DNA of 64,000 nt from an uncultured Bifidobacteriaceae bacterium (GTDB lineage: Bacteria > Acidobacteriota > Vicinamibacteria > Vicinamibacterales > JAMQPK01), in NCBI GenBank assembly GCA_964356125.1, contig CAYHHH010000002.1:12755-76754 (forward strand). The letters run 5' to 3'. Of the stretch, positions 4,555 to 56,481 are shown one piece after another. Under the pieces are notes generated by a model. The model did no database searches. It saw only the letters and a list, made by a program, of their open reading frames with translations, and was not told the DNA's origin. The first letter of the stretch is position 1, and each line of letters opens with the position of its first letter. Position numbers and translations under genes: made by a program.

Positions 4555-6174
<1,620 letters not shown>

Positions 6175-6178
6175 CGGG

Positions 6179-9100
6179 CTAGAAGGTGAACTTCGCCACG
6201 AACTGGATGAACCGTGGAGAAGCGGCTGTCGCGCTCGTGATGCGTCCGAAGTCGGTGCTCGCCGGGTTCAGATTCGGGTTGGCGAACGTCGTCCGATTCG
6301 GGAGGTTGATGATGTCCACGCGGAAGCTGAGCGCACTGCGACCGGGCAGCGTCACCGTTCGCATGAAGTTCATGTTCACCTGCAGGAGGTTCGGCCCCCT
6401 GACCCCATCGATTCGGAACGGGAAGACGCGCTTCTGGAAGTTGGCGGGCACCTTCGCTGGATCGCGCTCGAACCCGGCGTCCACGTTGAACCAGTGCTCG
6501 AGCGTCGGGTCGTCACTCGGGATGTCCTCGAAATCGCCGTAGAAGAAGACGTTACCCCACGCGAGAAGCGGTCCAGGCTGGTATTCGAGCGTGCCGCCGA
6601 CCTGCCAGCCGCCGAGAATCGCGCCAAGAACGCCCGTGCTCGCGAACTTTCGCCCAGGGCCGAACGGCAACTCGGCCAGGCCGTTGGCTGTGACGCGGTG
6701 CGGACGGCCGTTGGCGTTCGGCTGCCAGAGCGTGGGCACGCGGTCGTACTCGTTCAAGAGCTCCAGATTGCGGATCCGGTTGCCCGAGTAGGCAGCGCTC
6801 AGGGCGAAACCCTTGTGGAAACGACGCGTGAGGTTGATCTCCACGCCATGCGTCGTCTGTTTGCCGAGCGGCAGGTTCTGGAACATGAGACCGTTGCCCG
6901 CGCTCATATGCGGGAAGGGCCGCAGCAGCCGGTGCAACTGCACGGTGGTACTCGTGAAGAAGGCGTTACCAGCCATCCGCGCGTAGAGGGCTGGGTTGCT
7001 CGCCTGCAGCGAGGAAAAGCGCGAGAGCAGGAAGGGATTGGGCACATTCGTCTGCAGGAAGTTCTGCTGCGTGAGGTCCCTGACATTATTCCCATTCCAG
7101 TATTGCTCCGGCAGGTAGTCCATGCGGAGTGTCATCGGCAGCCGATCGCCGACCTGGTAGTTGTAGGCAACCTCGATGGCCGTCGTGCCCCACAGCTCGC
7201 GCTGGACGCTGGCTCGATACCGCTGCACGCGCGGGTGCTTACGATCCGGATTGCCGATGTTCACGGCAGCGCCGAGCAACGAGTCGACACCGAGGCTGTC
7301 GCCAACGATCGGGTCATAGCGCGTGCCGTCGGCGCGCAGCGGGAACGGATCGGTTTGCGGAAGAATCCCGACGGCGGGATTCCCGAGCGCCCAGGTCTGT
7401 CCGAAGTCGTTGCTCGTCACGCGCGTGCTCGTTGCGCTATAGCCGGTCGTGAGCGGCGTGTAATTGGCCGCGTTCAGCGTGTCGTAGAACATGCCGTAGC
7501 CGGCCTTGAGGACCGTCCGGGTGCCGAGCCGGTAGGCGCCCGACAGGCGCGGCATCAACAGCGACTCTCCCTTCCAGGAGCTTCCGTTCGTTCGTGCATC
7601 GCTCGCGAAGATCGGCCCGCCGCGAACCTTGAACGCGCTCGCCGGGAGGTTCGGATTCGGACTCGCCGCGTAGGCCGCTTCGGCCAGCGCCGTGATGGCT
7701 GTCACCGCGTCTGGATCCCAACCGATGATGTCGCGCTGCCCGGTTTCGACGATACCGCTCTCGTACTCGTAGCGAAGGCCGAAGTTGAGCGTCAGGTTTT
7801 GGCCGACCCGCCACGTGTCCTGGCCGTAGACGGAGAAATACGGCGAGTGCAGCTCGGGCGCCACGAAATCGTCGATCGAAAACGACTGCGGCAGGCCGAG
7901 CATGAACGCGGCCCACTCCAGCCCGAGGTTGCCGGCCGGGAACACCGTCGTGTCGTCGGCGGCGCGCGTGTAGATGTTGGTGTAGTTCACCACGCCGGAC
8001 GTGTTGCCCAGGTTCGAGATCTTGCGAGCGTGGCTGCGGTTGTCCGAGCCGAACCGAAGCGTGTGCGCGTTCCTCACGTGTGTGACGTTGATCTGGCCCT
8101 GGATGTTGAGCACCTCCGGATACACGCCAACGTTGCCACCGAAGTCCTGATAGCCCTGAAAGTTCACCGCTGGCATCTGGCAGCCGCCCTGGCGTGCCGA
8201 GCAGAAGTCGTCGACGTACTGCGGCATCCCGAAGTCCGTCGGCTCGTAGCTCTTCATCCCGAGGCGCCGCTCTGAGTCGAGAAACCAGTTCGATGCCGCC
8301 TGCGTGTCGACGACCGTGCCGTTGCCGAAGACCCGCGTCCAGTTGCCCGTGTACGACCAGCTCTTGCGTAGGCGCCATGTCGCATGAAGGCCCTGCGAGA
8401 GCGGATTGGCGTACGTCCAGTCGTCGTCCTCTTCGGTGAAGTAGCTGCCCGCGGCGCGGAAGAAGAGACGGTCCTTTTGCGACAGGTTGAAATCGAGGCG
8501 CGTGCCCCAGACGTGGCTGTGCGTCTGATCGGGCTCGGCCGCGCCGAGGTAATTGTTGGTCGGCGCCAGCCCCGCAGGCGGGTTCTGGTTGGGCGCCGGC
8601 AGGAACTGGGTGTACAGCTTGTAGGCCGGGTTCACGATACGGTCCTGCGGGATGACGTTGTTCGGGAATGGATCACGGATGATGCGGCCGGGCCGGTTCG
8701 GGTCGGGCCGCGCCGTCAGCGGATCGTAGATGCGGTACTGCTGCGGATTTGGCAGCCGCAGGAGATCGGAGAAGTCGCCTCTCAGGTGGGCTTCGGTCGG
8801 AAGCGTGATGGCGCCGGCCTGGATGTTACCGGGGATGAGATCGGCGACGAATGAATAATTCGCGAAGAAGAACATCTTGTTCCGTCCGTCGACCAGTTTC
8901 GGGATCACGACGGGACCGCCGATGGTGTACGACATGTTCGTGGACTTGCCGGACTGGAATACGTTCTTCAATTCGGGATCGCGATCGAGAATGGGCCTCT
9001 GAAAGTGGTTCGCGCCGTTCAGGCGGCTCGTCCACGTTTGATAACCGGCCGTGCCGCTCCATCGGTTGGTGCCCGCCTTGGTCATCATCGCGACGCCGAG

Positions 9101-9805
9101 CCCCGTGCCGTGTCCCACCGACGCATCGAAGTTCGACGTTTCGATTCGCATTTCCTGCAACATGTCGGAATTGGGCGAAGTGGCTATGTTGCGGGCGTTG
9201 CCGGCATTCGTGGCGCCATCGATGGTGTACTCCGCGGCGCCGACGCCGCCGATCGGGCCGGCCTGCGACGATGGGCCGCCGACGAAGCCCTGGGTTGCAA
9301 ACTGTGGCGCCGCACTCGCGGCCACGCCCGAGACGTTGCGGATCAGAAGCAACGGCATGCTCGAGAACGACGGCAGCTCCGTAATCAGACGGTTCTCGAA
9401 ACTGAGCCCCGACGAAACCGCATTCATGTCGAGGAGCACGGCCGCCGCGACCACGTCCACGCGTTCGCTCATATTGCCGACGTCGAGCGTGATGGTGAGC
9501 GAAACCGTCCGGCCGACCGCGACCTGAATGCCGGTCTGCCGGAAGCCTTTGAAATTCGGGAGCTCGACCGAGACTTCGTAGGCGCCAGCGATGAGCAGGG
9601 GAGCCTCGAAGTACCCGCTGCCGTTGGTCGCCAGCTGTTGCGAGACGGTGGTGCCGGTGTTGGTGATCGTCACGTTCGCGCCAGGCAGAACGCCGTCCTT
9701 ATCGCGTACGGTTCCCGAAATCGTTCCGCGCGTCTCCTGCGCGGCCGCACTGCCGGCGATCAGCAGCGCGACCAGCGCGCAAGCGATCGTGAGCCACTTT
9801 CGCAT
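6179..9805 (-). CDS. TonB-dependent outer-membrane receptor with N-terminal carboxypeptidase-regulatory-like domain
   Basis: 1208 aa. Signal peptide MRKWLTIACALVALLIAGSAAAQE, then TRGTISGTVRDKDGVLPGANVTITN (CarboxypepD_reg-like). C-terminal ...FVAKFTF (terminal Phe, typical of OM beta-barrels). Confidence 0.9.
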   Translation of the reverse strand: MRKWLTIACALVALLIAGSAAAQETRGTISGTVRDKDGVLPGANVTITNTGTTVSQQLATNGSGYFEAPLLIAGAYEVSVELPNFKGFRQTGIQVAVGRTVSLTITLDVGNMSERVDVVAAAVLLDMNAVSSGLSFENRLITELPSFSSMPLLLIRNVSGVAASAAPQFATQGFVGGPSSQAGPIGGVGAAEYTIDGATNAGNARNIATSPNSDMLQEMRIETSNFDASVGHGTGLGVAMMTKAGTNRWSGTAGYQTWTSRLNGANHFQRPILDRDPELKNVFQSGKSTNMSYTIGGPVVIPKLVDGRNKMFFFANYSFVADLIPGNIQAGAITLPTEAHLRGDFSDLLRLPNPQQYRIYDPLTARPDPNRPGRIIRDPFPNNVIPQDRIVNPAYKLYTQFLPAPNQNPPAGLAPTNNYLGAAEPDQTHSHVWGTRLDFNLSQKDRLFFRAAGSYFTEEDDDWTYANPLSQGLHATWRLRKSWSYTGNWTRVFGNGTVVDTQAASNWFLDSERRLGMKSYEPTDFGMPQYVDDFCSARQGGCQMPAVNFQGYQDFGGNVGVYPEVLNIQGQINVTHVRNAHTLRFGSDNRSHARKISNLGNTSGVVNYTNIYTRAADDTTVFPAGNLGLEWAAFMLGLPQSFSIDDFVAPELHSPYFSVYGQDTWRVGQNLTLNFGLRYEYESGIVETGQRDIIGWDPDAVTAITALAEAAYAASPNPNLPASAFKVRGGPIFASDARTNGSSWKGESLLMPRLSGAYRLGTRTVLKAGYGMFYDTLNAANYTPLTTGYSATSTRVTSNDFGQTWALGNPAVGILPQTDPFPLRADGTRYDPIVGDSLGVDSLLGAAVNIGNPDRKHPRVQRYRASVQRELWGTTAIEVAYNYQVGDRLPMTLRMDYLPEQYWNGNNVRDLTQQNFLQTNVPNPFLLSRFSSLQASNPALYARMAGNAFFTSTTVQLHRLLRPFPHMSAGNGLMFQNLPLGKQTTHGVEINLTRRFHKGFALSAAYSGNRIRNLELLNEYDRVPTLWQPNANGRPHRVTANGLAELPFGPGRKFASTGVLGAILGGWQVGGTLEYQPGPLLAWGNVFFYGDFEDIPSDDPTLEHWFNVDAGFERDPAKVPANFQKRVFPFRIDGVRGPNLLQVNMNFMRTVTLPGRSALSFRVDIINLPNRTTFANPNLNPASTDFGRITSATAASPRFIQFVAKFTF

Positions 9806-9832: not shown

Positions 9833-11242
9833 TTACCAGTGCGATAACGAGCCGTCGAGCCGCCTATGTGTCGGCCCTGGCGCGCCCTCGGTCATCTCCT
9901 CGAGGAACGTCAGAACCTTCTCGTCGACGCTGACGCCCAGACCCGGCCGTTCGTTCGGCCACACCTTGCCATTCCTGCACTCGAGGAACTCCGGCATGTA
10001 TGGCACTGGACGGTCGCCCTGGTTGTATTCCATGAGCACCTGACCGGGAAATGCCATCATCGTGTGCATGTGCCCAGCGGTGGCGATGGGGCCCGTGAAA
10101 TGCGGCACGATACCGACCTTGTGCGTATCGCACACCGCCATGATCTTCAGCATCTCGGTGATGCCGCCGGAGTTCGGCATCGACGCGCGTGCGAAATCGA
10201 TGTCGCGCTGCTCGACCAGCGGACTGAAGTCTGCCCTGATGCTCCACTCCTCACCGGGTGCAAGCGGCACGCTGGTGAGCAATCTGAGCTTCGGGATTTG
10301 TGTCCGGAACTGCTCCTCGCGGAGCGGATCCTCGACGCAGAACGGCCGCAGCGGCTCCATAAGCCTGCAGAGCTCGACCGACTCATGGAAATCGAACTTC
10401 TGATGCACGTCGATCATCCAATCGCCGTCGGCGCCGACACCGTCGCGGATCTGCTCGAGCGCCTTGATGATTTGCGGGATTCGCGCTCGTGAATTGAATA
10501 CGGACCCGCCCCGCCCGCCGCCCCGTCCGCCGGCTCGAGCGCCCGCAGCGCCTGGACCCGCTCCAGGGCCCGGGGCCGGTCCACCGGTTCGAGCGCCACC
10601 GGTGCTCGGCAGAATGCCGCCGTCCACGCGGTAGACGCGATAACCGGCAGCCATCGTCGCCGCCGCGCGCTCTTTCAGCCCCATCGCCTGTGCCTCGGCC
10701 GGCGGCACGACGCCCTGTGGGAGTCCGGATGTTGCGTACAACTCGACGTGCTCACGCGCCTTGCCGCCAAACAGCTGATACAGGGGCACGTTGAGCGCCT
10801 TTCCCTTGATGTCCCACAGCGCCAGGTCGATGGCGCCGAGCGCGTGCAGCCGTTCCTTGCCTGGCGAGTAAAAGCCGTCCATGAAGGCCGCCTGCCAGAT
10901 GGCCTCGGTATCGAAGGCATTCTTGCCGATGACGCTTCTGGCGACGTTGCGCACGGTGTCCGGAGAGCCGCCTTGGCCGACTCCCGTGATCCCTGCTTCG
11001 GTGTCCACAAGGACGACCATGTTGCTCTGCGGAAACGCCTGTGGGCCGTTCGCGTTGTAGTTAGGCGGATAGAAGATCCGGATCTTCGTGACCCGGGTGG
11101 GCGACAGGCGGCTGGCAGCCTGTGCGAGCGCGACTGGCATACGAGTCCACTCGGGCCTGTTCCGCAGGACCCATGAACCGGCGACAAGCGATCCTGCCGC
11201 TCCCACAAGCGACTTCGTGAAGGTTCTGCGATCGATGTTCAT
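9833..11242 (-). CDS. Enolase-superfamily (mandelate racemase/sugar-acid dehydratase-like) protein with twin-arginine signal
   Basis: 469 aa. N-terminus MNIDRRTFTKSLVGAAGSLVAGSWV (Tat-like). AIDLALWDIKGKALNVPLYQLFGG is an enolase-superfamily hallmark. A Gly/Arg-rich insert is present. Sits 27 nt upstream of the receptor gene on the same strand. Confidence 0.85.
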   Translation of the reverse strand: MNIDRRTFTKSLVGAAGSLVAGSWVLRNRPEWTRMPVALAQAASRLSPTRVTKIRIFYPPNYNANGPQAFPQSNMVVLVDTEAGITGVGQGGSPDTVRNVARSVIGKNAFDTEAIWQAAFMDGFYSPGKERLHALGAIDLALWDIKGKALNVPLYQLFGGKAREHVELYATSGLPQGVVPPAEAQAMGLKERAAATMAAGYRVYRVDGGILPSTGGARTGGPAPGPGAGPGAAGARAGGRGGGRGGSVFNSRARIPQIIKALEQIRDGVGADGDWMIDVHQKFDFHESVELCRLMEPLRPFCVEDPLREEQFRTQIPKLRLLTSVPLAPGEEWSIRADFSPLVEQRDIDFARASMPNSGGITEMLKIMAVCDTHKVGIVPHFTGPIATAGHMHTMMAFPGQVLMEYNQGDRPVPYMPEFLECRNGKVWPNERPGLGVSVDEKVLTFLEEMTEGAPGPTHRRLDGSLSHW

Positions 11243-11343
11243 AACTATGCTCCTTTAGACAGCGCACGAAGCTGATCAGCATTCCTTTGGAGGCGGCGAT
11301 AATTGACTGTTTGTGGGCATTCTAGCGGCGCATTCCCGGCGAG

Positions 11344-11360
11344 TTGGGACAAGTTGTGAC
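11344..11360 (+). promoter_or_regulatory. Candidate direct-repeat operator TTGGGAC-AAG-TTGTGAC
   Basis: 16/17 identical (19/20 with flank) to the reverse-strand site at 36099-36083. Lies 55 nt upstream of ATG 11416. Confidence 0.45.
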
Positions 11361-11415
11361 ACGCCGCGGCGACGGGTTCTCGCGCGACGGATTCGCGGTA
11401 ATCTCGCGTGACTTT

Positions 11416-13062
11416 ATGAGTTCATTTGGCCGACGCTCGTTCCTCTCCGGCCTGGGCAAGGCCGGGGCAGTGCTCGCCGCCAGTCCGTGGCTCAGCCCGA
11501 TCGGGTACGCACAGGTCAGCAGGGGGCCTGCGCGCGTGTTCCTCCGGCGATCGGCGACGCGCCCCGACTTCGATCGCCGGGTGCTCGGCGCGTTTCTCGA
11601 ACATCTCGGCCGTGCCGTCTACACCGGAGTGTTCGAGCCCGGGTCGCCTCTTGCTGATGCAAGCGGATTTCGCACCGACGTGGCGCGCGAGGTCAAGGAG
11701 CTCGGGGTGCCCGTCGTTCGCTATCCCGGAGGCAACTTCGTCTCCGGATATAACTGGCTCGATGGCGTCGGACCCAAGGCGAATCGTCCCGTGGTGCTCG
11801 AGCGCGCCTGGAATTCGATCGAGACAAACCAGTTCGGCACGAACGAGTTCATCGACTGGTGCCGCGCGGTCGGCACCGAGCCGCTGCTCGGACTCAACTT
11901 CGGTACCGGTACGGCCGAGATGGCGGTCGCTTACGTCGAGTACTGCAATGTGGAGCGCGGCACCAGGTGGAGCGATCTACGCCGCGCACACGGCTACGCC
12001 GAGCCGCACAACGTGCGCTACTGGTGTCTCGGCAACGAGATGGACGGCCCATGGCAGATCGGCCAGATGCAGGCGCGCGAGTACGGACGCAAGGCCCGCG
12101 ACGTCGCGCAGCAGATGCGGGCGATCGACCGCGAACTGAAGCTGCTCGCGTGCGGATCGAGCGGCACGTTCATGCCGACCTATCTGGCGTGGGATCGTGA
12201 AGTGCTCGAAGAGTGCTACGACCAGGTTGACGGCATCTCGCTTCACGCCTATTACGGCAACACGAACGCGTTGACCGGCAACAACACGGCGCGGTACCTG
12301 GCGATGAACCTCGACATGGATCGCCACATTCACGAGACGGCCGCGGTCTGCGACTACGTCCAGGGACTGAAACGGTCGAGCAAACGCCTGTGGCTGTCGT
12401 TCGACGAGTGGAACGTGTGGTACCGCGCGCGCGGCCGGGATGCCACCGACGGCCGCCGCACTGAGGCGCCGAAACTGCTCGAGGAGGTGTACAACCTCGA
12501 GGACGCGCTCCTGGTCGGCGGTCTCATCAACACCCTGCTCCGCAACTCGGACCGCGTGCACGTCGGTTGTCTGGCGCAGCTCGTCAACGTGATTGCGCCG
12601 CTGGTCACCAACTCGAGCGGCGTGCTGCGCCAGAGCACGTACTTCCCGTATGCGTGGGCGCTTCGTTACGCCCGCGGCCGCGTGCTCGATTTCCGCGTGG
12701 AGTCGGAGACCTATCCGATCAGAGCGGCCGGATTACAGGCCGACTTCGCGCGCAACGCAGACGTCCCGTTCGTCGATATCGTCGCCACGCTGGATGAGCA
12801 GAATGGCCAGGCGTGCGTCCTGATGCTCAATCGCGATCTCGACGCGGAACGCGAGGTGGTGCTCGAGTGGGACGACGTCACGCCGGCGCGCGTGCTCGCG
12901 TGCGAGACGTTGACCGGACCAGACCTGAAAGCGTTCAACACGTTCGACGAGCCGCGGCGCGTCGCGCCGCAGCCACTGGCTCCGCCCGCGCCTGGCAGCC
13001 GGATGTCGTTCAGGCTGCCTCCGCGTTCGTACAGCGTCGCGCACCTGAGCCTGAAAGCCTGA
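11416..13062 (+). CDS. abfA: GH51 alpha-L-arabinofuranosidase with Tat-type signal
   Basis: Motifs RYPGGNFVSGYNWLDGVGP, ETNQFGTNEF and WCLGNEMDGPWQIG (GH51 acid/base region). Start moved to the internal ATG 11416, giving MSSFGRRSFLSGLGKAGAVLAASPWL. Confidence 0.85.
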   Translation: MSSFGRRSFLSGLGKAGAVLAASPWLSPIGYAQVSRGPARVFLRRSATRPDFDRRVLGAFLEHLGRAVYTGVFEPGSPLADASGFRTDVAREVKELGVPVVRYPGGNFVSGYNWLDGVGPKANRPVVLERAWNSIETNQFGTNEFIDWCRAVGTEPLLGLNFGTGTAEMAVAYVEYCNVERGTRWSDLRRAHGYAEPHNVRYWCLGNEMDGPWQIGQMQAREYGRKARDVAQQMRAIDRELKLLACGSSGTFMPTYLAWDREVLEECYDQVDGISLHAYYGNTNALTGNNTARYLAMNLDMDRHIHETAAVCDYVQGLKRSSKRLWLSFDEWNVWYRARGRDATDGRRTEAPKLLEEVYNLEDALLVGGLINTLLRNSDRVHVGCLAQLVNVIAPLVTNSSGVLRQSTYFPYAWALRYARGRVLDFRVESETYPIRAAGLQADFARNADVPFVDIVATLDEQNGQACVLMLNRDLDAEREVVLEWDDVTPARVLACETLTGPDLKAFNTFDEPRRVAPQPLAPPAPGSRMSFRLPPRSYSVAHLSLKA

Positions 13063-13079
13063 GGAGGATCGTGAAAAAG

Positions 13080-14984
13080 ATGAACGCTCCATGTCGTGGA
13101 TACCTCGGTGTGTCTCTGGCCTGTGTGCTGTTTGTTGCCGGCTGCTCGAGCGGCGGACCGGAATGGGCCGAGCGCAACCAGCGCGTGATCGACGAGTTCA
13201 AGATCACGGGTCGGACGCGAGAGCTTCCCGAGGTCCGCGTGCCTGTGTCCCTCACGCCCGGCCAGCCGGTGGAGAACGCCGCGCTGCCCACCGCCACCCT
13301 CGCCCCCGGCGTTGTCGCCAGGCTCGCGTGGGGACGCGGCGCGTTGCTCGAACAGGTCGACATGCAAGCGGGCGCCGTCTACCCGGAGCAGACGCTCGCC
13401 GAGGAGCTGATCGTCATCGTGCGTGACGGCTCGGCGATCCTTCAGTTCGACGGCAAGACCGCAGAACTGATCAAGGATCACGTGATCTATCTCCAGCCGG
13501 GAACGAAGCGATCGATGAAAGCCGGGCCCGACGGGTGGAAGGCCTACGAGGTGTACTCGCCGGTACGGCTCGACCACCTCGCGCTCGCCGGACAGAAGGT
13601 CGATGGCGTGAACGCGACAGTCCCCGACCAGGGAGTGACCCCGTCGCTCCAGCCTGGTGTCGTCGCGAACCTCAACGACATCCAGTGGACGCCGCTGATT
13701 GATCCAGACGCGACCAGGTCGTATCGCCGCAGCACGGGACAGTCGCGGCTGATCTGGGGAAAGAACGCGCAGGTCAGCCTGATCCGCATGGACCCCGGCT
13801 CCCAGATTCCGAAGCACATGCACCCGGAGGATCAGCTCACGCACACGGTTCGAGGCACCCTCGATCAAGGTGTGATGGACGCGACGTTTCCCGAGACCGG
13901 TGCGGCCGGCCACACGTTGCTCCTGCCCGGCGGCATGGTGCATTCGGCGAAGCTGGGGGATGTCGGCGCCGATCAACTCGACGTCTTCTGGCCTGTGCGT
14001 CCCGACTACACGGAGCGCGCCGGAAAGCAGCGCGTGCTCTACGAGCAGATCGTGGCCCCCGAGACGAAGCCGCAGAAGCTGAGCGAGGGTTTCACGTTCA
14101 CCGAAGGACCCACGTGGTTGAAGGGGAAGCTGTACTTTTCGGACATGTTCTTTCAGAATCCGGCAGCCGGCGACTGGACCGGCAGCCCCGCCAAGAGCCG
14201 GCTGATCGCGATGACGCCGGATGGCAAGTGGCGAGTGCTGACGAGCGGGATGCAATCGAACGGCACCATCGCCGCCGCGAACGGCAATCTTCTCGTGTGC
14301 GACATGTTTGGCCACCGCGTGGTGGAGATCGATCCGGCGAACGGCCGGGTGGTGCGCGTGGTGCTCGACAAGGTGGGAGGCACACCCATCGACGGCCCGA
14401 ACGATCTCGTGATGGACGCCAGGGGCGGCCTCTACGTCACCGATCCGCAGTTCACGCCGGAAGCCAAGAAGAGTCAGCCCGGCAAACAGGTCTACTACGT
14501 CGCACCCGGCGGCACAGCCAGAGTCGTCATCGGGCCCGGCGAGTTCGCGATGCCAAACGGCGTCGAGCTGTCGCCTGACGGCAAGACGCTCTATGTGAAC
14601 AACACATGGTCGCAGCCCGGCGAGAACTTCGTTTACGCGTACGACGTCGCAGATGACGGCTCGGTGTCGAACAAGCGGCAGTTCGCGAAGTTGAACCTGA
14701 CGCCGGACGTGCTCGGCGCCGCCAATCCGCCCGATCGGTTCGATTCGCGCGCCGACGGCACGGCCGTCGACACCGATGGCCGTTACTACGTGGCGACGAA
14801 CACGGGCGTGCAGATGTTTCTGCGGGATGGTACGTACGCCGGCACGATCTGGGTGCCGCAATATCCCGTGAGCCTCACCTTCGGCGGCGCGAATAACGAC
14901 ATCCTCTATATGGTTGGCGAGTCGTCTGCCTGGTCGATACAGACCAGGGTGCGGGGGTTCCGCCATCCGCAAGGCATGAACTGA
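13080..14984 (+). CDS. Lipoprotein: two cupin-like domains + SMP-30/gluconolactonase/LRE-like beta-propeller (sugar lactonase candidate)
   Basis: Start trimmed (ATG 13080, or GTG 13071) to give MNAPCRGYLGVSLACVLFVAGCSS (lipobox). The C-terminal half has FTEGPTWLKGKLYFSD, NDLVMDARGGLYVTDP and PNGVELSPDGKTLYVNN. Confidence 0.8.
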   Translation: MNAPCRGYLGVSLACVLFVAGCSSGGPEWAERNQRVIDEFKITGRTRELPEVRVPVSLTPGQPVENAALPTATLAPGVVARLAWGRGALLEQVDMQAGAVYPEQTLAEELIVIVRDGSAILQFDGKTAELIKDHVIYLQPGTKRSMKAGPDGWKAYEVYSPVRLDHLALAGQKVDGVNATVPDQGVTPSLQPGVVANLNDIQWTPLIDPDATRSYRRSTGQSRLIWGKNAQVSLIRMDPGSQIPKHMHPEDQLTHTVRGTLDQGVMDATFPETGAAGHTLLLPGGMVHSAKLGDVGADQLDVFWPVRPDYTERAGKQRVLYEQIVAPETKPQKLSEGFTFTEGPTWLKGKLYFSDMFFQNPAAGDWTGSPAKSRLIAMTPDGKWRVLTSGMQSNGTIAAANGNLLVCDMFGHRVVEIDPANGRVVRVVLDKVGGTPIDGPNDLVMDARGGLYVTDPQFTPEAKKSQPGKQVYYVAPGGTARVVIGPGEFAMPNGVELSPDGKTLYVNNTWSQPGENFVYAYDVADDGSVSNKRQFAKLNLTPDVLGAANPPDRFDSRADGTAVDTDGRYYVATNTGVQMFLRDGTYAGTIWVPQYPVSLTFGGANNDILYMVGESSAWSIQTRVRGFRHPQGMN

Positions 14985-15013
14985 ACGGCACGCGACGGGT
15001 TTGGAGGGAGCGC

Positions 15014-16687
15014 ATGAGCACGGCGATGTCTCGACGGAGCATCCTGCAGTTGGCGTTGGCGCCGGCGTTTCTGTCTCGCGCGCAGGTGGGCGACCTTGCG
15101 CCGACAGTGTCGAGGGTTCATCCCGGGACCGACGGCAGGCTCGTCTACGTTCCCGATGAGCACGGCAACACGATTCTCGACTCTTCCCACGCCGGATACG
15201 GAGGCGGGGGCGTGCCAATTCCCACCGTGCCGGTCAAGGTGACCATCTGGCCGGTCGCCGGCGACAACACCGAGCACATCCAGGCGGCTATCGACAACGT
15301 CTCCGCACTCCCGCTCGACAAGAGCGGGTTCCGCGGCGCGGTGCTCCTGAGGGCTGGGTACTACAAGATGGCGACGCCGGTGCGGATTCAGGCCAGCGGC
15401 GTGGTGCTGCGCGGCGAGGGCATGGGTGACACCGGCACCATTCTCGTCGGCACCGGGACGGGCCGTATCCCTGCGCCTGCAGGAGCGGCAGGAGCGGGCG
15501 GTGGTCCCGGCGGGGGATTTGGCGGCGGCCAGTCGACGCTCGTGCAGATCGCCGGCGCCTCCGGCGTCACGACGAAGGATGAGACGAAGCAGATCGTCAC
15601 AGACGACCACGTGCCGGTCGGCGCGCGCAGCTTCAGGGTGGCATCGGCCCGGGGATTCAGGCGTGGCGATACGGTCATCGTCCGGCGCATGGGCAACGAT
15701 GAGTGGATCGCCGCGATCGGGATGAACGGGGAGACGCCGCAGAGCCGCTGGAAGCCGTTCAACGTGGAATGGGATCGTGTGATCACCGACGTCCAGGGAA
15801 ACACGATCACCATCGACGCGCCGATCACGTGCGCGATCGAGAAGCGCTGGGGCGGCGGCGAGCTGATGAAGTACGAGGATCCCGGCCGCATCGAGAAAGT
15901 GGGCGTCGAGAACCTTCGCGCCATGTCGGAGTTCGACCCGGCAGTACGCACGAAGGAATACGGCAACATGGACCGCCCGAATTACGTCGCCGAGGAGTAC
16001 TACGCCGACGAGAATCACTATCGCAACTTCATCACCTTCGACAATATAAAGGACGGCTGGGTGCGGAATGCCACCGCCCTGCATTTCGTCTACAGCATGG
16101 TGGGGACGGCGCGCGGATCGAAGTGCGTCACCGTGCAGGACTGCGTGTCGCGCGAGCCGATCTCGCGGAGGGCGGGCGCGCGGCGGTTTACGTTCGCGCT
16201 GCGCGGGCAGCTCGCGCTCGTGCAGCGGTGCCACTCCGACAAGGGGCGCCACTCGTTCATGGCGGGCCAGCCGACGGCGAGCGGAAACGTGTTTCTCGAC
16301 TGCAAGGCGACCAACCCGTATTCGTCGAGCGAGCCGCACGAGCAGTGGGCGACCGGCAGCCTCTACGACAACGTCCAGGCGCCGCTCACGGCCCGGTTCT
16401 GGAAAAACATCAGCATCGGATGGGCGGGCGCCAACACTGTCTTCTGGAACTGCGAAGGATCCTTCCTCGTCCAGAAGCCGCCGACGGCGCAGAATTTTTC
16501 GTTTGGCCACATCGGCGTCGACGCCGTGGTGTTCAACATCCCGCTGCAGGATCCGACGAAAGACGGCGGCTATATCGAGTCGCTGGACAGGCACGTCACG
16601 CCGCGCAGTCTCTATTTGACGCAACTCCGCGAGCGGCTCGGAGAGACCGCACTTCGCAATATTGCGGCGCCCAGCCAGCTCGGCTGA
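15014..16687 (+). CDS. Tat-exported right-handed beta-helix protein (pectate-lyase-superfamily / glycosidase-like)
   Basis: 557 aa with SD GGAGGGAG. N-terminus MSTAMSRRSILQLALAPAFLSRA. DNTEHIQAAIDNVSALPLDKSGFRGAVLLRAGYYKMATPVRIQASGVVLRGEG resembles the Pectate_lyase_3-type N-terminus. The family call is tentative. Confidence 0.6.
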   Translation: MSTAMSRRSILQLALAPAFLSRAQVGDLAPTVSRVHPGTDGRLVYVPDEHGNTILDSSHAGYGGGGVPIPTVPVKVTIWPVAGDNTEHIQAAIDNVSALPLDKSGFRGAVLLRAGYYKMATPVRIQASGVVLRGEGMGDTGTILVGTGTGRIPAPAGAAGAGGGPGGGFGGGQSTLVQIAGASGVTTKDETKQIVTDDHVPVGARSFRVASARGFRRGDTVIVRRMGNDEWIAAIGMNGETPQSRWKPFNVEWDRVITDVQGNTITIDAPITCAIEKRWGGGELMKYEDPGRIEKVGVENLRAMSEFDPAVRTKEYGNMDRPNYVAEEYYADENHYRNFITFDNIKDGWVRNATALHFVYSMVGTARGSKCVTVQDCVSREPISRRAGARRFTFALRGQLALVQRCHSDKGRHSFMAGQPTASGNVFLDCKATNPYSSSEPHEQWATGSLYDNVQAPLTARFWKNISIGWAGANTVFWNCEGSFLVQKPPTAQNFSFGHIGVDAVVFNIPLQDPTKDGGYIESLDRHVTPRSLYLTQLRERLGETALRNIAAPSQLG

Positions 16688-16708
16688 GCCCGGATTCTGG
16701 AGGGGACT

Positions 16709-17584
16709 GTGACTCTGACACGACGAGAGTTCCTGGCGCTGGTTGGTGCGGCGGCGGTGGTGCCGGGCACCGGGGTATCGGCCAATCCGCTCGGCCTGCC
16801 GTTCGGATTCCAGGCCTGGGAGATCGCCCCCGACATGCGGAAGGACTGGGATGGCACCCTGAAGGCCATGAAAGGATTTGGCTATTCGTACATCGACCTG
16901 AACCAGGTGAGCCCGTACATCGATCGGCCCGCGGCCGATCTCAAGGCCTCGTTCTCGTCGCACGGCTTCACCTTCTCGAACGCGCTCTGGTCCTACCAGG
17001 CGTTTGCGAACCGTCTCGATCAGACCGTTGCCGATTCGCTCACGCTGGGCTTGTCGACAATCGTCTGCTCCCCGAGACCGCGGCTGCGGACGAGCGACGA
17101 CTGGAAGAGCTTCGCGGAGGAGCTCAACAAGTACGGCGAGCGCACGAAGGCCGCGGGGCTGACGCTGGGTTTCCATAACCACGAGATCGAGTTCGTCAAG
17201 ACGCCGCAGGGCGACGTGCCGTGGGACATTCTCGTTCAGTCGACCGATCCGGCACTCGTCAGTTTTCTCATCGACGTCGGCAACCTCACGTTCGGAGGCG
17301 GCGATCCGTATGAATATCTGGCGAAATATCCGAAGCGCTACTATGGCGTGCATGTGAAAGACTTCAAGCGGGGAAAGGCGGCGATCCCGGTCGGCGCGGG
17401 CGACCTCGACTGGAAGCGGATCTTCACCCTCGTCAAAGCGGCCAACATCCGCAACATCGTCGCGGAAGTCGGCGCGTACGGCGCGAGTACCCTGCAAGGT
17501 GAGCCGCTCGAGCCGCCCGACTACAGCGTGCTCGAGCTGTACAAGCGCAGCGCGGAGTTTCTGCGAGCGTTTTCGGACGTGTGA
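16709..17584 (+). CDS. Tat-exported xylose-isomerase-like TIM-barrel protein (sugar phosphate isomerase/epimerase family)
   Basis: GTG start after GGAGGGGA. N-terminus MTLTRREFLALVGAAAVVPGTGVSA. Family-typical HNHEIEF and FLIDVGN motifs. Confidence 0.75.
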   Translation: MTLTRREFLALVGAAAVVPGTGVSANPLGLPFGFQAWEIAPDMRKDWDGTLKAMKGFGYSYIDLNQVSPYIDRPAADLKASFSSHGFTFSNALWSYQAFANRLDQTVADSLTLGLSTIVCSPRPRLRTSDDWKSFAEELNKYGERTKAAGLTLGFHNHEIEFVKTPQGDVPWDILVQSTDPALVSFLIDVGNLTFGGGDPYEYLAKYPKRYYGVHVKDFKRGKAAIPVGAGDLDWKRIFTLVKAANIRNIVAEVGAYGASTLQGEPLEPPDYSVLELYKRSAEFLRAFSDV

Positions 17585-17598
17585 AGGAGAACCTGGTT

Positions 17599-18774
17599 AT
17601 GCGAAGAACAGCAGCACTGGCACTTCTGTGCGGGCTCGCCGGTGTCGCGGGGCTCGTGGCCGCGCAGACCACCGCCGGCAAGACGCTCGACATCTACTAC
17701 ATCGACACGGAAGGCGGGCAATCCACGCTGTTCGTCAGCCCCGCTGGCGAGTCGCTCCTCGTCGACACCGGCAACGCCGGCGGCCGCGATCTCGAGCGGA
17801 TCATCGCAGCCGTCAACGCCGCCGGCGTCACGCAGATCGATCACATGTGGAGCACGCATTACCACGGCGATCACGTGGGCGCGATGGAAGAGCTGGCCAC
17901 GCGCGTGCCGATCGGGCATTTCTACGACCACGGACCGATTGCGCCGAACGATCGCGCGACGCCGGCCACGTTCTTCGCGATGTACGAGGCGCTGAGCAAG
18001 GGCCGCCGCACGACCGTCAAGCCCGGCGACAAGGTGCGAATGGCGGGCCTGGACATCACCACGGTGTCGTCGAACGCCGTGGCCATCAAGACCAGCCTGC
18101 CTGGCGCGGGCAAGCCGAATCCGGCGTGCGCGGGCGTCGAGAAGAAGGATGAAAGCGCCTATTTTGATCCCGACAACGGATCGTCGGCCGGCTTCGCGAT
18201 GACGTTCGGCAGGTTCACGACCGTCGATCTTGGAGATTTGACGTGGAACGGCGAGCTCGACATCGTGTGCCCAGTGAACCGCATCGGGAAAATCGACCTG
18301 TATCTCGTGTCGCACCACGGGATCGACCGTTCCAGCTCGCCGGCGCTGGTGCACGGACTCCAGCCGCGCGTGGCGATCATGAACAACGGCACGCGCAAGG
18401 GTGGCGCGGCCAACACGTTCAAGGTGCTCGAGTCGTCACCGGGACTCGAAGATCTCTGGCAGCTGCACTGGTCGCACAACGTCGGCGTCGAACACAACGC
18501 GCCCGGCACGTTCATCGCGAACATCGAGGACAACGAGACGATCGCCGGCGTGCTCACCGCGCCGCCGCCGGCGCCGCGCGGTGGGACGGGTGCGCCGGGT
18601 GCGCCAGGCGCTCGAGGTGCGGGCGCACGAGGGGGGCGCGGGGGACCCGGCGGCGGCGCCGCCGCCGCACACACGCCGGCCTACTGGCTCAAGGTTTCGG
18701 CGCAGCGCGACGGCGCGTTTACCATCACGAACCCGCGCAACGGATTCAGCAAGACGTACCGGCCGGAGGATTGA
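17599..18774 (+). CDS. Exported MBL-fold metallo-hydrolase
   Basis: ATG 17599 lies 9 nt after AAGGAG. Signal MRRTAALALLCGLAGVAGLVAAQ. WSTHYHGDHVG matches the HxHxDH motif. Long Gly/Arg/Ala/Pro insert near the C-terminus. Confidence 0.8.
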   Translation: MRRTAALALLCGLAGVAGLVAAQTTAGKTLDIYYIDTEGGQSTLFVSPAGESLLVDTGNAGGRDLERIIAAVNAAGVTQIDHMWSTHYHGDHVGAMEELATRVPIGHFYDHGPIAPNDRATPATFFAMYEALSKGRRTTVKPGDKVRMAGLDITTVSSNAVAIKTSLPGAGKPNPACAGVEKKDESAYFDPDNGSSAGFAMTFGRFTTVDLGDLTWNGELDIVCPVNRIGKIDLYLVSHHGIDRSSSPALVHGLQPRVAIMNNGTRKGGAANTFKVLESSPGLEDLWQLHWSHNVGVEHNAPGTFIANIEDNETIAGVLTAPPPAPRGGTGAPGAPGARGAGARGGRGGPGGGAAAAHTPAYWLKVSAQRDGAFTITNPRNGFSKTYRPED

Positions 18775-24250: not shown

Positions 24251-24384
24251 CTCCTCCTGTCCTTCCTGACGAGGGTTGCGTCAACGCGGCGAACGGACCG
24301 GCCGTCGTTAGGCGTCGTCGGTTTTATATCATGAAACTATGTTGTGTGCGGTGCACACTATAACCGCAGTCACACCCCTCGAAG

Positions 24385-24401: not shown

Positions 24402-24407
24402 GGGTGG

Positions 24408-55538: not shown

Positions 55539-56465
55539 TCAGATTCGAGCCAGGTGTCCGGTCGGAATGGGTCGAGTGATGTCGACGCCGGGGAGCGTGC
55601 GCGCAAGAATCGCGTCGAGCTGCTGCGATTGTGCGGCGGAAATCGTGGCGCCGGGATGCCTGACGCGCGGCGAGGCGAAAAGGCCGCGTCGGCGGAACAG
55701 CTCTTTGCGGATCGCGACACCGGGCTGCTGCTCGAACACGATCAGGGCGGCGAATCGCGAGTAAATCTGATGCACCCGCGGCCAGTCCTGCGCGCGTGCG
55801 GCCGCCACGAGCGCCTGCATGACTTCCGGAAACGCGAAGCCCGTGTTGAACCCGTCGGATCCGGCTTCCAGATCGAACGGCGCGTAGAGCCCGCCGAGGC
55901 CGGACAGAATCGGCATGCGCCGCTCGGTGAACGCTTCACGCAGTTGACGAATCTTGGGCGCTGTCGGTACCGCTTCTTCCTTGACGCAGCCGATCGACGG
56001 AACCGATCGGAGAATCCGCGCGACGAGCGCCGCCGGCATGTGGACATCGGCCGATGCCGGGTGGTCCTGCAGTACGATCGGAATGGAAACAGCCTGCGCG
56101 ATCTGCTGATAGAGCTCGACGATGCGATCGTCGCTGGGCACCGGCTCCTTGGCGGGTGCGATCATGACGGCGTCTGCCCCGAGATCGTGCGCCATGCGTG
56201 CCAGCGACGCCGCGGTGCGGGTGCCCGACGCGCTCGCACCGACGATGATCGGCATGCGGCCGCGTACCACGGCGGCAGCTGCTTCGATGAGGGTACGGCG
56301 CTCTTCGTCGTTGAGCCGATTCGCTTCGCCGAGGACTCCGAGAATCGTGACGCCGTCGACGCGGAGCTCGATCATGAACTCCAGCAGCCGCTGCCAGGAG
56401 CTCAGATCCAGGCTGTCTTCGTCGGCAAATGGCGTGGCGAGAATCGGGATGACGCCGGCAAACAT
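55539..56465 (-). CDS. DHDPS/NAL-family class I aldolase or dehydratase (2-keto-3-deoxy sugar-acid enzyme candidate), cytoplasmic
   Basis: Start trimmed to ATG 56465, giving MFAGVIPILATPFADEDSLDLSSWQRLLEFMIELRVDGVTILGVLGEANRL, a DapA-like N-terminus. 17 nt upstream of the ACS transporter. Confidence 0.8.
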   Translation of the reverse strand: MFAGVIPILATPFADEDSLDLSSWQRLLEFMIELRVDGVTILGVLGEANRLNDEERRTLIEAAAAVVRGRMPIIVGASASGTRTAASLARMAHDLGADAVMIAPAKEPVPSDDRIVELYQQIAQAVSIPIVLQDHPASADVHMPAALVARILRSVPSIGCVKEEAVPTAPKIRQLREAFTERRMPILSGLGGLYAPFDLEAGSDGFNTGFAFPEVMQALVAAARAQDWPRVHQIYSRFAALIVFEQQPGVAIRKELFRRRGLFASPRVRHPGATISAAQSQQLDAILARTLPGVDITRPIPTGHLARI

Positions 56466-56481
56466 GTTGGATGGCGCCTGT

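Follow-up and report, generated by a model that had tools for sequence, protein, structure and literature searches.

Pseudomonas (P. taiwanensis VLB120 and P. putida) runs a compartmentalised Weimberg pathway: pentoses are oxidised in the periplasm by a PQQ-dependent dehydrogenase, in a reaction coupled to respiration, the resulting lactone is opened there by a lactonase, and the acid is dehydrated to 2-keto-3-deoxy-pentonate (PMC11252243). A second periplasmic system, the 3-keto-glycoside pathway of Bacteroides and Alistipes (AL/BT1-3), makes use of exported, partly Tat-dependent, enzymes of the xylose-isomerase-like TIM-barrel and DUF1080 families. Our searches of the literature for exported enolase-family dehydratases found none.

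Here we describe a locus, within a stretch of 64,000 nucleotides (the window), which suggests that the sugar-acid dehydratase step, always described as cytoplasmic, may in this case be located outside the cytoplasm. The host genome is that of a soil Acidobacteria. The original prediction, of an exported sugar-oxidation module that includes a dehydratase, is supported, with location, activity and substrate all inferred.

Results

The protein at the centre of this proposal, E1 (9833..11242, minus strand), is a GalD/ManD-like member of the enolase superfamily with 469 residues and a twin-arginine leader, which we propose to be a periplasmic acid-sugar dehydratase. It passes the Pfam cut-offs for both MR_MLE_N (46.5 bits) and MR_MLE_C (141.9 bits), and carries a Gly/Arg-rich insert of some 30 residues (214-249). 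Among solved structures it comes closest to galactonate and mannonate dehydratases (3rr1, 3vcn; E 1e-38 to 1e-39), and identity to GalD/ManD is about 30-35%. The metal carboxylates (D278, E304, E331), the D-x-H histidine (H280) and H381 are all conserved; these ligands and histidines, along with the closest structures, favour a protein that would be catalytically competent as a dehydratase. The Asp of the GalD dyad is, however, replaced by S354 (Thr in P0121, P0128 and P0129), the Tyr that acts as base in ManD has no counterpart in the alignment, and the E1 clade has PHFTGP where GalD-like proteins show PHNPxGP. E1 also scores well under every NCBIfam cut-off for characterised dehydratases, reaching 166.9 bits for GalD (cut-off 311) and 166.7 bits for ManD (cut-off 550).

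E1 and the four genes that open the adjacent operon sit at the positions originally predicted, each in a high-GC3 frame. As foreseen, E1 lies beside a TonB-type outer-membrane receptor (6179..9805, minus strand; CarboxypepD_reg and OMP_b-brl_4, 402 bits), 27 nt downstream on the same strand; the two are likely to be co-transcribed. A divergent plus-strand operon opens with a Tat-signal GH51 alpha-L-arabinofuranosidase (11416..13062, plus strand, 11416 being the true start), which passes the NCBIfam ArfA equivalog (629.4 bits against a cut-off of 625) and matches Pfam Alpha-L-AF_C. Next is a lipoprotein (13080..14984, plus strand) combining two cupin domains with an SMP-30/gluconolactonase beta-propeller; its lipobox (FVAGC), its matches to SGL (127.9 bits), Cupin_2 and AraC_binding, and its PDB relatives, the gluconolactonases 3e5z and 3dr2, agree with the lactonase first assigned here, and we propose that it serves as the periplasmic sugar lactonase. 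The third gene (15014..16687, plus strand) encodes a conserved exported-type protein of 557 residues, a recurrent partner of E1, with a Gly-rich insert (152-175). Its anticipated RR leader is present (N-terminus MSRRSILQLALAPAFLSRAQ), but the beta-helix fold also ascribed to it was not recovered: the protein has no Pfam family and no PDB match, the BT3328 lyase family (38 bits, weak) as its sole hint, 2528 homologues that are all unnamed, and an AlphaFold model with a pLDDT of 35. After a TIM-barrel gene (see below), the operon ends with a metallo-beta-lactamase-fold protein (17599..18774, plus strand; Pfam Lactamase_B) that has a Sec signal, a Gly/Arg-rich insert and a Shine-Dalgarno sequence before its ATG at 17599; this is a candidate lactonase or hydrolase.

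Beyond the receptor lie an LctP-family (lactate/glycolate-type) permease (4555..6174, plus strand; Lactate_perm, 466 bits), a candidate importer of the acid product, and a quinohaemoprotein PQQ dehydrogenase (1782..4109, plus strand; Pfam PQQ, 513 bits, and Cytochrome_CBB3, residues 481-559 forming the cytochrome c domain), proposed as the module's periplasmic sugar or aldehyde oxidase. Both flanking dehydrogenases that had been expected, this one and a PQQ/cytochrome c enzyme (25653-27602), are indeed present. The nearest PDB entries to the first are type II quinohaemoprotein alcohol dehydrogenases; that the PQQ enzymes are nearest to these, and not to known aldose dehydrogenases, counts against the sugar-oxidation step.

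We surveyed 79 E1 loci from other Acidobacteriota MAGs. Within 6 kb of E1 the genes found are for esterases (21 loci), TonB-dependent receptors (20), PQQ enzymes (12), GH43 (9), cupin-SGL (7), GH51 (7) and a second, CBM-bearing GH51-type cluster (7). Receptor orthologues (49-88% identity) adjoin E1 in either order (L001, L009, L061, L062, L085 and others), and lactonase orthologues lie near it at 67-75% identity in L009, L057 and L085, with weaker matches (28-34%) in L030, L045, L055 and L056. Orthologues of the 1782..4109 dehydrogenase (at least 50% identity) occur within 10 kb in nine loci. Such neighbourhoods support the proposed link of E1 to periplasmic oxidation and a lactonase. Counting against it, the surroundings of E1 are variable, a PQQ gene comes within 10 kb in only about one-fifth of them, and these genomes are PQQ-rich. 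The 557-residue protein adjoins E1 in L009 and L049 and is near it in L057. Several loci bring these elements together: L009 has receptor, E1, 557-residue protein and GH51 in series, with the PQQ dehydrogenase and cupin-SGL close by; L049 has the PQQ dehydrogenase, then the 557-residue protein divergent from E1, which is followed by LctP; and L007 combines PQQ, SGL, GH43 and E1. In L044 and L049 the permease gene follows E1 on the same strand, starting 8-11 bp beyond it. Operons running from GH43 through a 241-residue protein to E1, and from an esterase to E1, are also seen. In four genomes (L029, L032, L037, L060), which also hold orthologues of the metallo-beta-lactamase-fold protein near E1 (61-66% identity), a Sec-signal HpcH/HpaI aldolase with Gly-rich linkers, akin to YfaU and GarL (E about 1e-19), stands beside E1: in L037 E1 follows it after 33 bp, and in the other three it lies within a co-directional series of metallo-beta-lactamase-fold protein, HpcH, cytochrome c-PQQ and E1. 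No HpcH homologue was found in the window.

A paralogue of E1 and second putative Tat-signal dehydratase of the enolase superfamily, E2 (56591..57859, plus strand; Pfam MR_MLE), has a Gly-rich insert (52-73) and a canonical GalD-type active site in which the Asp of the His-Asp dyad is kept. E1 itself is not a member of either equivalog, GalD or ManD. Divergent from E2 is a DHDPS-family protein (55539..56468, minus strand; 108.7 bits) resembling KDG / 2-keto-3-deoxy-pentonate aldolases, which has no signal peptide (N-terminus MFAGVIPILATPF) and is proposed to carry out the next step in the cytoplasm. MFS transporters accompany the pair; one of them, downstream of this aldolase (54175..55521, minus strand; MFS_1, 164 bits), is a candidate importer of the keto-deoxy acid, and the cluster also holds a third PQQ dehydrogenase (52443..54194, plus strand; 296 bits). 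An MFS-DHDPS-regulator block likewise faces an E2 homologue in L087, and lactonase-like beta-propellers adjoin E2 in L087 and L088.

There is a lesser, though real, chance that E1 is exported but does not dehydrate free aldonates and acts on another periplasmic carboxylate. It might then be an aldaro-/uronolactone cycloisomerase, an epimerase/racemase, or a dehydratase whose substrate is the aldonate terminus of an oxidised oligosaccharide. Cycloisomerases and epimerases are both found among enolase-superfamily members, and the replaced dyad Asp, the PHFTGP motif and the sub-cut-off scores against all NCBIfam equivalogs would be compatible with such a role; the two histidines H280 and H381 are nonetheless invariant, these being the acid/base pair of GalD/ManD-type dehydratases. 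The neighbours likewise divide, in that esterases and glycosidases, not dehydrogenases, are the commonest, while aldolases that use keto-deoxy acids (HpcH, DHDPS) adjoin E1 and E2, and the recurrence of the lactonase with E1 indicates an open-chain acid substrate.

The fourth operon gene encodes a xylose-isomerase-like TIM barrel (16709..17584, plus strand; AP_endonuc_2), whose identity and Tat signal (TIGR01409, 21.2 bits) agree with the original prediction; its placement in a sugar-acid route does not hold up as well. The closest solved chains (8tct, 8tcs, 8tcd) are labelled ‘sugar phosphate isomerase’, a label shared by proteins demonstrated to be 3-keto-glucoside lyases, and the protein is probably a keto-sugar lyase/isomerase engaged in 3-keto-glycoside lyase chemistry rather than in a Weimberg/Dahms role. 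Two DUF1080 proteins are encoded at 27577-31626. It could be argued that the cluster as a whole serves oxidation-elimination-hydration cleavage of glycans, with PQQ enzymes replacing the Gfo/Idh/MocA oxidase and E1 being peripheral or unrelated, and both the TIM barrel and the DUF1080 proteins (lyase/hydratase in the 3-keto-glycoside pathway) would suit this, as would the Tat-signal Gfo/Idh/MocA genes near E1 in four loci. We consider it improbable: no Gfo/Idh/MocA gene is present in the window, of the 79 loci just one has the TIM barrel near E1 and two have DUF1080, and the lactonase, enolase members and aldolases are all left unexplained. The known pathway shares the TIM-barrel and DUF1080 families with the window, but relies on an NAD-bound Gfo/Idh/MocA oxidase, cleaves glycosidic bonds, and is without an enolase-superfamily enzyme, lactonase or aldolase.

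Export-type N-termini directly follow the start codons of E1 and of the first four operon genes, with a Shine-Dalgarno sequence 6-8 nt upstream in four of these five (GH51 being the exception) and also in E2. For E1 (MNIDRRTFTKSLVGAAGSLVAGSWVL), an AAGGAG lies 7 nt 5' of the ATG, and the leader, 40-50 residues long, extends to about residue 42. R5, R6 and F8 are fixed, RRxF being invariant in 16 of 16 aligned homologues, as residues 25-45 drift; 118 of 120 close homologues, and 75 of 86 E1-related ORFs (79 species-level genomes), have an RR followed by an uncharged stretch. A more distant clade, in Bryobacterales, has a textbook leader (MNRRSFLKSLAA; consensus RRSFLKS, S/T-R-R-x-F-L-K), and representatives of cytoplasmic GalD-like clusters begin at about E1 residue 50, without the extension of some 50 residues. 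RR leaders also occur in other enolase lineages: E2 (MNRRNFLRAS, with GAGGAGG ahead of a GTG start), at least 100 of its 114 full-length homologues, P0204, and paralogues of 422-438 residues. Tat models gave a mixed result, with GH51 (MSSFGRRSFLS; 17.3 bits against a TIGR01409 cut-off of 16.7) and the TIM barrel passing, E2 falling under the cut-off, and the leaders of E1 and the 557-residue protein escaping detection by TIGR01409 and PF10518. Retention of the RR in an otherwise variable leader, and recurrence of the gene set in shuffled order elsewhere, argue that the E1 observation is not due to chance.

The objection that the true starts lie downstream of the RR N-termini fails on the Shine-Dalgarno sequences, the conserved RR pattern and the start of the cytoplasmic relatives at about E1 residue 50. 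The least probable account, in which these N-termini do not function as Tat signals and E1 and E2 are cytoplasmic Weimberg/Dahms dehydratases supplied with aldonate by import, as in Pseudomonas, draws on the missing Tat HMM match of E1, the long region after its hydrophobic stretch (RNRPEWTRMPVALAQA) and the cytoplasmic location of all characterised relatives (PMC11252243), but runs counter to the Shine-Dalgarno-backed starts, the invariant RRxF in a drifting leader, the distant-clade consensus, the shorter cytoplasmic relatives and the overwhelmingly exported products of neighbouring genes.

Discussion

Synthesising the domain identities, conserved leaders and recurring neighbourhoods, we infer export itself, the location and dehydratase activity of E1, the nature of its substrate and sugar, and an order of steps; and we lean, if only modestly, towards a periplasmic route for hemicellulose sugars that runs from dehydrogenase to lactonase to dehydratase, with Tat-exported E1 and E2 as the acid-sugar dehydratases. 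Fragments of arabinoxylan-type hemicellulose would enter the periplasm through TonB-dependent receptors, and pentoses would be freed by the exported GH51 (elsewhere also by GH43, GH10 and esterases). We suggest that the free sugar is oxidised to its lactone by a quinohaemoprotein PQQ dehydrogenase, which would pass electrons to the respiratory chain, and that the ring is opened by the SMP-30 lipoprotein or the metallo-beta-lactamase-fold enzyme. E1 and E2, as Mg2+-dependent enzymes folded in the cytoplasm and then exported by the twin-arginine route, may act next, with E1 dehydrating the aldonate to a 2-keto-3-deoxy acid while still in the periplasm. This product might then be imported (by the MFS or LctP permease) and cleaved by the DHDPS-type aldolase in the cytoplasm or, in some genomes, be cleaved in the periplasm by the Sec-exported HpcH/HpaI aldolase.

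E1 shares with GalD/DgoD and ManD the two-domain MR_MLE architecture, three metal carboxylates, the D-x-H histidine and the strand-7 histidine, and E2 additionally has the His-Asp dyad of GalD; E1 differs in its dyad Ser, insert, Tat leader and lack of an aligned ManD Tyr, and we know of no description of any of these four features in the characterised enzymes. Both families of Dahms-type pyruvate aldolase are represented, DHDPS (YagE/YjhH/KDG aldolases) beside E2 and HpcH/HpaI (YfaU, GarL) beside E1 in the four genomes noted above, which is the pairing expected where a dehydratase is followed by an aldolase. The HpcH proteins depart from these aldolases in their Sec signal peptides and Gly-rich linkers, and to our knowledge no exported member of that family has been described.

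The sequence of PQQ oxidation, lactone opening and dehydration proposed here is that of the Pseudomonas Weimberg pathway, with soluble quinohaemoprotein dehydrogenases in place of the membrane-bound Gcd. In Pseudomonas, however, it is the aldonate that is taken into the cytoplasm, where the dehydratase and all later enzymes reside, whereas here the dehydratases carry conserved Tat leaders and the aldolase of some genomes a Sec leader, such that the compartment boundary appears to be shifted onwards by one or two reactions; if true, the route would go past the known periplasmic half-pathway of Pseudomonas by a single step, or by two in some genomes.

Gene content of the window

The interval 9833-17584 is filled by two divergent transcription units. 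On the minus strand, the 469-aa enolase-superfamily protein with a twin-arginine leader (E1; 9833-11242, N-terminus MNIDRRTFTKSLVGAAGSLVAGSWVL) is followed after 27 nt by a 1208-aa TonB-type receptor (6179-9805, CarboxypepD_reg/OMP_b-brl_4). The plus-strand unit, with intergenic gaps of 17, 29, 21 and 14 nt, runs from a GH51 arabinofuranosidase (11416-13062, N-terminus MSSFGRRSFLSGLGKAGAVLAAS) through a 634-aa lipoprotein in which two cupins are fused to an SMP-30/gluconolactonase propeller (cupin-SGL; 13080-14984, leader ...LACVLFVAGC), a 557-aa protein (15014-16687, N-terminus MSTAMSRRSILQLALAPAFLSRAQ) and a xylose-isomerase-like TIM barrel (16709-17584, N-terminus MTLTRREFLALVGAAAVVPG) to a protein of metallo-beta-lactamase (MBL) fold (17599-18774, N-terminus MRRTAALALLCGLAGVAGLVAAQ). 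The GH51 enzyme belongs to the ArfA equivalog NF051901 (629.4 bits against a cut-off of 625, over residues 39-544 of 548). The 557-aa protein falls in no Pfam family, and neither a Pfam nor a PDB match backs the ‘beta-helix’ label predicted for it; AlphaFold2, run on a shallow alignment of 30 sequences (at least 79% identical to the query), returned a pLDDT of 35.

The exported gene set anticipated by the original prediction (an enolase-superfamily member together with a TonB-dependent-type receptor, GH51, a lactonase and the TIM barrel) was thus found as described, by domain matches and export-type N-termini, and the PQQ dehydrogenases expected to flank it, at 1782 and 25653, are both present and carry cytochrome c domains; a third PQQ dehydrogenase lies at 52443. 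The wider window also encodes an LctP permease (4555-6174), multihaem cytochromes, further TonB receptors and two DUF1080 proteins. Its G+C content is 62-69%, and genes are distinguished by high third-position G+C; homologues place the source in uncultured Vicinamibacterales (Acidobacteriota), the best genome match being a Vicinamibacterales MAG at 90% identity. A scan for consensus promoters returned none, and terminators were no more frequent than in shuffled sequence.

Two large exported multihaem c-type cytochromes (18786-20834, minus strand; 45121-47259, plus strand) lie between the sugar clusters, with MtrC/c554-like motifs and, in one, a TPR region; they may receive the electrons of the quinohaemoprotein dehydrogenases. 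A 434-aa ORF (24339-25643, plus strand), which contains a Gly/Arg-rich insert and, internally, a signal-like stretch (MTLARSLGVGTMLVLAAGWLSAQ), ends 10 nt upstream of the cytochrome c-PQQ dehydrogenase gene at 25653, with which it is probably co-transcribed. We rejected this ORF as a second enolase gene, as it matches no Pfam family; the real second member (E2) lies at 56591-57859 on the plus strand.

A proposed extracytoplasmic route

Non-phosphorylative routes of the Weimberg/Dahms type combine a sugar dehydrogenase, a lactonase and an aldonate dehydratase with either an aldolase or a second dehydratase and a semialdehyde dehydrogenase. Candidate genes for a dehydrogenase (PQQ), a lactonase (SGL) and a dehydratase (E1, E2) are present and linked, as judged by domain matches, and we consider it probable, if not strongly so, that they serve a periplasmic dehydrogenase-lactonase-dehydratase route for hemicellulose sugars. 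In such a route, the TonB receptor would admit hemicellulose fragments, from which pentoses would be released by exported GH51, GH43 and GH10 enzymes and esterases; a quinohaemoprotein would then turn the sugar into a lactone, to be opened by the lipoprotein lactonase, and E1 or E2, exported by Tat in the folded state, would dehydrate the aldonate to a 2-keto-3-deoxy acid. This acid might be imported, through an MFS or LctP transporter, and cleaved by a cytoplasmic aldolase of the DHDPS family, or alternatively be split by an exported HpcH aldolase while still in the periplasm. We observe the domain assignments, leaders and linkages of this module directly. A point against the route is that the PQQ enzymes are nearer to alcohol than to aldose dehydrogenases.

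Chemistry of E1 and E2

Both domains of the enolase superfamily are found in E1 (PF02746, 46.5 bits against a cut-off of 22; PF13378, 141.9 bits against 29.4) and in E2 (64.2 and 183.4 bits, respectively). The closest solved relatives of E1 are a putative galactonate dehydratase (3rr1) and the mannonate dehydratases 3vcn and 4gme (E ~1e-39). Members of the superfamily bind their essential divalent metal through three carboxylate ligands at the ends of barrel strands 3, 4 and 5, and alignment with 3rr1 and 3vcn identifies D278, E304 and E331 as the corresponding residues of E1; among 13 diverse sequences E304 and E331 never change and D278 almost never does (Glu in E2). Also conserved in E1 are H280, the histidine of the D-x-H motif, and H381, that of strand 7. 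AlphaFold2 gave a pLDDT of 34 for E1 on a shallow, 16-sequence alignment.

E1 scores 166.9 bits against the D-galactonate dehydratase (GalD) model NF010624 (cut-off 311) and 166.7 bits against the D-mannonate dehydratase (ManD) model NF043051 (cut-off 550), and is also well under the cut-offs of the other equivalogs that it matches. The general base is a His-Asp dyad in GalD and, in ManD, a Tyr-Arg dyad in the 150-180s loop. At the position of the GalD dyad Asp, which is retained in cytoplasmic GalD-like proteins, in E2 and in the related protein P0204, E1 has S354, and its Tat-bearing clade has Thr or Phe; at the site of the ManD loop E1 has a variable, Gly/Arg-rich insert of 30 residues, and there, where this insert makes the loop alignment uncertain, R205 may match the ManD Arg and no Tyr is aligned. 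As E1 scores under every equivalog cut-off and the dyad Asp is replaced, it belongs to no characterised equivalog; sources currently name proteins of its family only ‘galactonate dehydratase’ or ‘mandelate racemase family’.

Taken together, E1 is most likely an acid-sugar dehydratase whose general base, as far as sequence can tell, is assignable to neither dyad, and E2 looks like a canonical GalD-type dehydratase. The departure of the E1 active site from both reference subgroups counts against the proposed route, and it leaves room for E1 to be exported but to act on a different substrate or catalyse a different reaction; with both histidines in place, we regard this as a credible, if somewhat unlikely, alternative.

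Gene neighbourhoods in other genomes

We fetched 79 loci around E1 homologues from other MAGs (given here as L numbers) and clustered the genes within 6 kb; all the neighbours tabulated have signal peptides. The most frequent were PF00756 esterases (21 of the 79 loci) and TonB receptors (20), followed by PQQ dehydrogenases (12, or 17 within 10 kb) and a family of about 241 aa without a Pfam match (12). GH43 was found at nine loci, sulfatases at eight, and the ArfA-type GH51 of the window, a second GH51 type with a CBM_4_9 domain and the cupin-SGL lactonase at seven each; MFS transporters occurred at six, and GH10, carboxylesterases and HpcH/HpaI aldolases at five each.

These neighbourhoods are variable, which again counts against the proposed route. 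Nevertheless, the gene set of the window recurs in other orders: L009 has TonB receptor, E1, 557-aa protein and GH51 in succession, with the PQQ dehydrogenase of the 1782-4109 type (PQQ1) and cupin-SGL close by; L049 has PQQ1 and the 557-aa protein, the latter divergent from an E1 gene that is followed by LctP; in L057, a Steroidobacteraceae MAG, E1 is accompanied by the 557-aa protein, PQQ1, cupin-SGL and an E2-like protein; and L007 has a TonB receptor, PQQ, SGL, an esterase, GH43 and E1. Conserved content in shuffled order is a classic sign of functional coupling, and we read it as such here. Tight units are also seen, with esterase-E1 and GH43-241-aa protein-E1 arrangements at gaps below 50 bp in several species, and the LctP-family permease starts 8-11 bp past E1 in L044 and L049.

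The secreted family of about 241 aa (L013 9263-9964, L016 8900-9625, L072 9228-9953 and nine other loci) sits between GH43 and E1 in several species, with gaps of 16-48 bp, and none of the annotated window genes is homologous to it. Homologues of E1 at 70-73% identity also occur in MAGs labelled Gammaproteobacteria, Chloroflexota (Limnocylindrales) and Planctomycetota (L057, L039, L040, L050, L080), in L057 with the 557-aa protein, PQQ1 and cupin-SGL as partners; either the module has been transferred horizontally or contigs of Acidobacteriota were mis-binned.

It is improbable, in our view, that the cluster is mainly a 3-keto-glycoside system. The closest solved relatives of the TIM barrel (8TCD, 8TCT and 8TCS) are annotated ‘sugar phosphate isomerase’, as are proven 3-keto-glucoside lyases, a link that rests on this shared annotation, and DUF1080 proteins, recently shown to be 3-keto-glucoside lyase/hydratases, act in that pathway. 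However, TIM barrel and DUF1080 genes seldom accompany E1, and the scan of window ORFs revealed no gene for the Gfo/Idh/MocA 3-oxidase that the AL/BT1-3 pathway combines with a TIM-barrel lyase and a DUF1080 lyase/hydratase, which places the cluster outside that pathway despite its TIM barrel and two DUF1080 proteins. The latter are tandem exported proteins (27577-29550 and 29551-31626, minus strand) in which DUF1080 (‘3-keto-disaccharide hydrolase’) is fused to FG-GAP repeats and, with the Tat TIM barrel, they hint that the genome encodes another uncommon sugar chemistry of the periplasm.

Twin-arginine leaders and Gly/Arg-rich inserts

Tat substrates are marked by an N-terminal S/T-R-R-x-F-L-K-like motif, a weakly hydrophobic stretch and an AxA-type cleavage site. 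The leader of E1 fits this pattern (DRRTFTKS, 16 uncharged residues, then ALA-QA), and that of E2, which has a GTG start after GAGGAGG, fits the motif (MNRRNFLRAS). Short Tat-signal models overlook many true signals: TIGR01409 (cut-off 16.7) caught the leaders of GH51 (17.3 bits) and the TIM barrel (21.2 bits), the isolated leaders of E1 and the 557-aa protein matched neither TIGR01409 nor PF10518, both short models, and the E2 leader reached 16.9 bits against a cut-off of 22.7 for a similarly short curated model. With only two leaders caught in this way, we relied on comparative conservation.

The search for E1 homologues gave 3521 matches, the best 120 of which share at least 79% identity with it along their whole length; in 118 of these, RR and an uncharged stretch directly follow the start, as they do in 75 of 86 related ORFs from 79 species-level genomes, most exceptions being truncated genes. 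In an alignment of 16 sequences R5, R6 and F8 are invariant, and residues ~25-45 vary in sequence and length. A Bryobacterales clade 42-49% identical to E1 carries a textbook MNRRSFLKSLAA, and the next full-length relatives (42-59% identity), from a search of 1.8 billion cluster representatives, have RR leaders too, as do at least 100 of the 114 members of the E2 family and further enolase paralogues that adjoin E1 in other genomes. GalD-like representatives at 34-37% identity start with MKI(T/E)D, at a position equivalent to residue ~50 of E1.

The E1 leader is, on this comparison, a family-specific N-terminal addition under selection for RRxF; as RRxF is kept, the leader otherwise drifts and relatives start near residue 50, it reads as an export signal and not a mis-called start. 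The objection that the true starts lie downstream therefore fails, also in view of the clear Shine-Dalgarno sites found 6-8 nt before the start codon of every gene of the two units except GH51, and the RR N-termini stand as originally predicted. That the leaders are non-functional and E1 cytoplasmic, for all that the curated models are silent on E1, is very improbable given this conservation. Export by Tat makes sense for enolase-superfamily enzymes, since these are normally oligomeric and metal-binding.

Ten proteins of the window, all predicted exported soluble enzymes, contain Gly/Arg-rich low-complexity inserts of 16-36 aa (GRGG or GAGPG type): 1782-4109 (aa 559-584 and 740-756), 9833-11242 (aa 214-249), 15014-16687 (aa 152-175), 17581-18774 (aa 333-366), 24339-25643 (aa 285-301), 25653-27602 (aa 399-426), 27577-29550 (aa 151-171), 29551-31626 (aa 179-209), 31589-32596 (aa 57-74) and 56591-57859 (aa 52-73). 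None was found in nine cytoplasmic or inner-membrane proteins and four TonB receptors of the window. Similar inserts occur in exported E1 neighbours of other MAGs (esterase, GH43, HpcH aldolase, MBL); in E1 neither its sequence nor its length is constant, and the Bryobacterales clade lacks it. The insert may be a lineage-specific feature of secreted proteins.

Aldolases and a bolder form of the proposed route

The E2 cluster of the window comprises IclR, MFS, PQQ, MFS, a signal-less DHDPS aldolase, E2 with its Tat leader, a protein of unnamed family and a TonB receptor. In L087 the MFS-DHDPS-LysR arrangement, divergent from E2, is seen again, with a TonB receptor and a lactonase close by; in L088 a beta-propeller with only faint lactonase-family Pfam matches directly follows E2. 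The 453-aa ORF between E2 and the receptor (57864-59225, plus strand) has no signal and no Pfam match, and the L087 gene at its position has a faint methyltransferase (MTS) match; a methyltransferase-like gene of cytoplasmic type stands out in an otherwise exported or membrane cluster.

Besides this DHDPS gene, candidate aldolases are provided by HpcH/HpaI class II homologues near E1 (L029 6366-7427, L032 6163-7317, L037 8772-9968, L047 16631-17581, L060 6020-7207), all with Sec-type signal peptides and with Gly-rich linkers; they resemble YfaU and GarL (E ~1e-19), the closest PDB entries being 3qz6, YfaU and GarL. We know of no exported member of this family. The aldolase shares an operon with E1 in four genomes, three of which also include the PQQ dehydrogenase: most tellingly, in L029 and L060 an MBL-fold protein, an HpcH/HpaI aldolase, a cytochrome c-PQQ dehydrogenase and E1 are encoded in this order by four co-directional genes, L032 has HpcH, PQQ and E1 in that order, and in L037 HpcH precedes E1 by a 33-bp gap. 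The window itself has no HpcH aldolase by tblastn.

A bolder form, which we put forward as doubtful, is that some Vicinamibacterales carry out all of the oxidative sugar route outside the cytoplasm and import only small acids. Sugar would be converted to pyruvate and a C2 or C3 aldehyde by a PQQ dehydrogenase of the quinohaemoprotein type, a lactonase of SMP-30 or MBL fold, the Tat-exported enolase-type dehydratase and a Sec-exported HpcH/HpaI aldolase; PQQ enzymes would oxidise the aldehyde further, and pyruvate, glycolate and lactate would enter through the LctP-family permease encoded just after E1 in some genomes. The Gly/Arg-rich loops, which almost all of these exported enzymes have in common, might keep them together or tether them in the envelope.

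Relation to known systems

Homologues of the E1 type number in the thousands and belong to soil Acidobacteriota that are abundant and for the most part uncultured; some of the genomes add the exported aldolase. The enzyme families and the chemistry are already known; what is new is the compartment, the class of Tat cargo and perhaps also the export of an aldolase. In the full texts searched, no enolase-superfamily dehydratase was described as periplasmic or as exported by Tat; as the coverage is incomplete, this is weak evidence. For the proposed route, we infer location, activity, substrate and step order; if our reading is right, the enolase superfamily would join the list of Tat cargo, and the module would suggest how these oligotrophs draw respiratory energy from hemicellulose sugars without importing them, as well as offering parts (exportable dehydratases, keto-deoxy-acid importers) for engineered pentose use.

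Aldonate uptake is a known bottleneck, and to our knowledge, in every textbook and engineered version of the Weimberg and Dahms routes, the periplasmic part stops at the aldonate and everything from the dehydratase onward is cytoplasmic; Tat-exported dehydratases would shift this periplasm/cytoplasm boundary. The nearest described system is the Weimberg pathway of Pseudomonas, where Gcd and the lactonase are periplasmic and the aldonate is imported, the dehydratase and later enzymes being cytoplasmic (PMC11252243), whereas the dehydratases described here carry Tat leaders.
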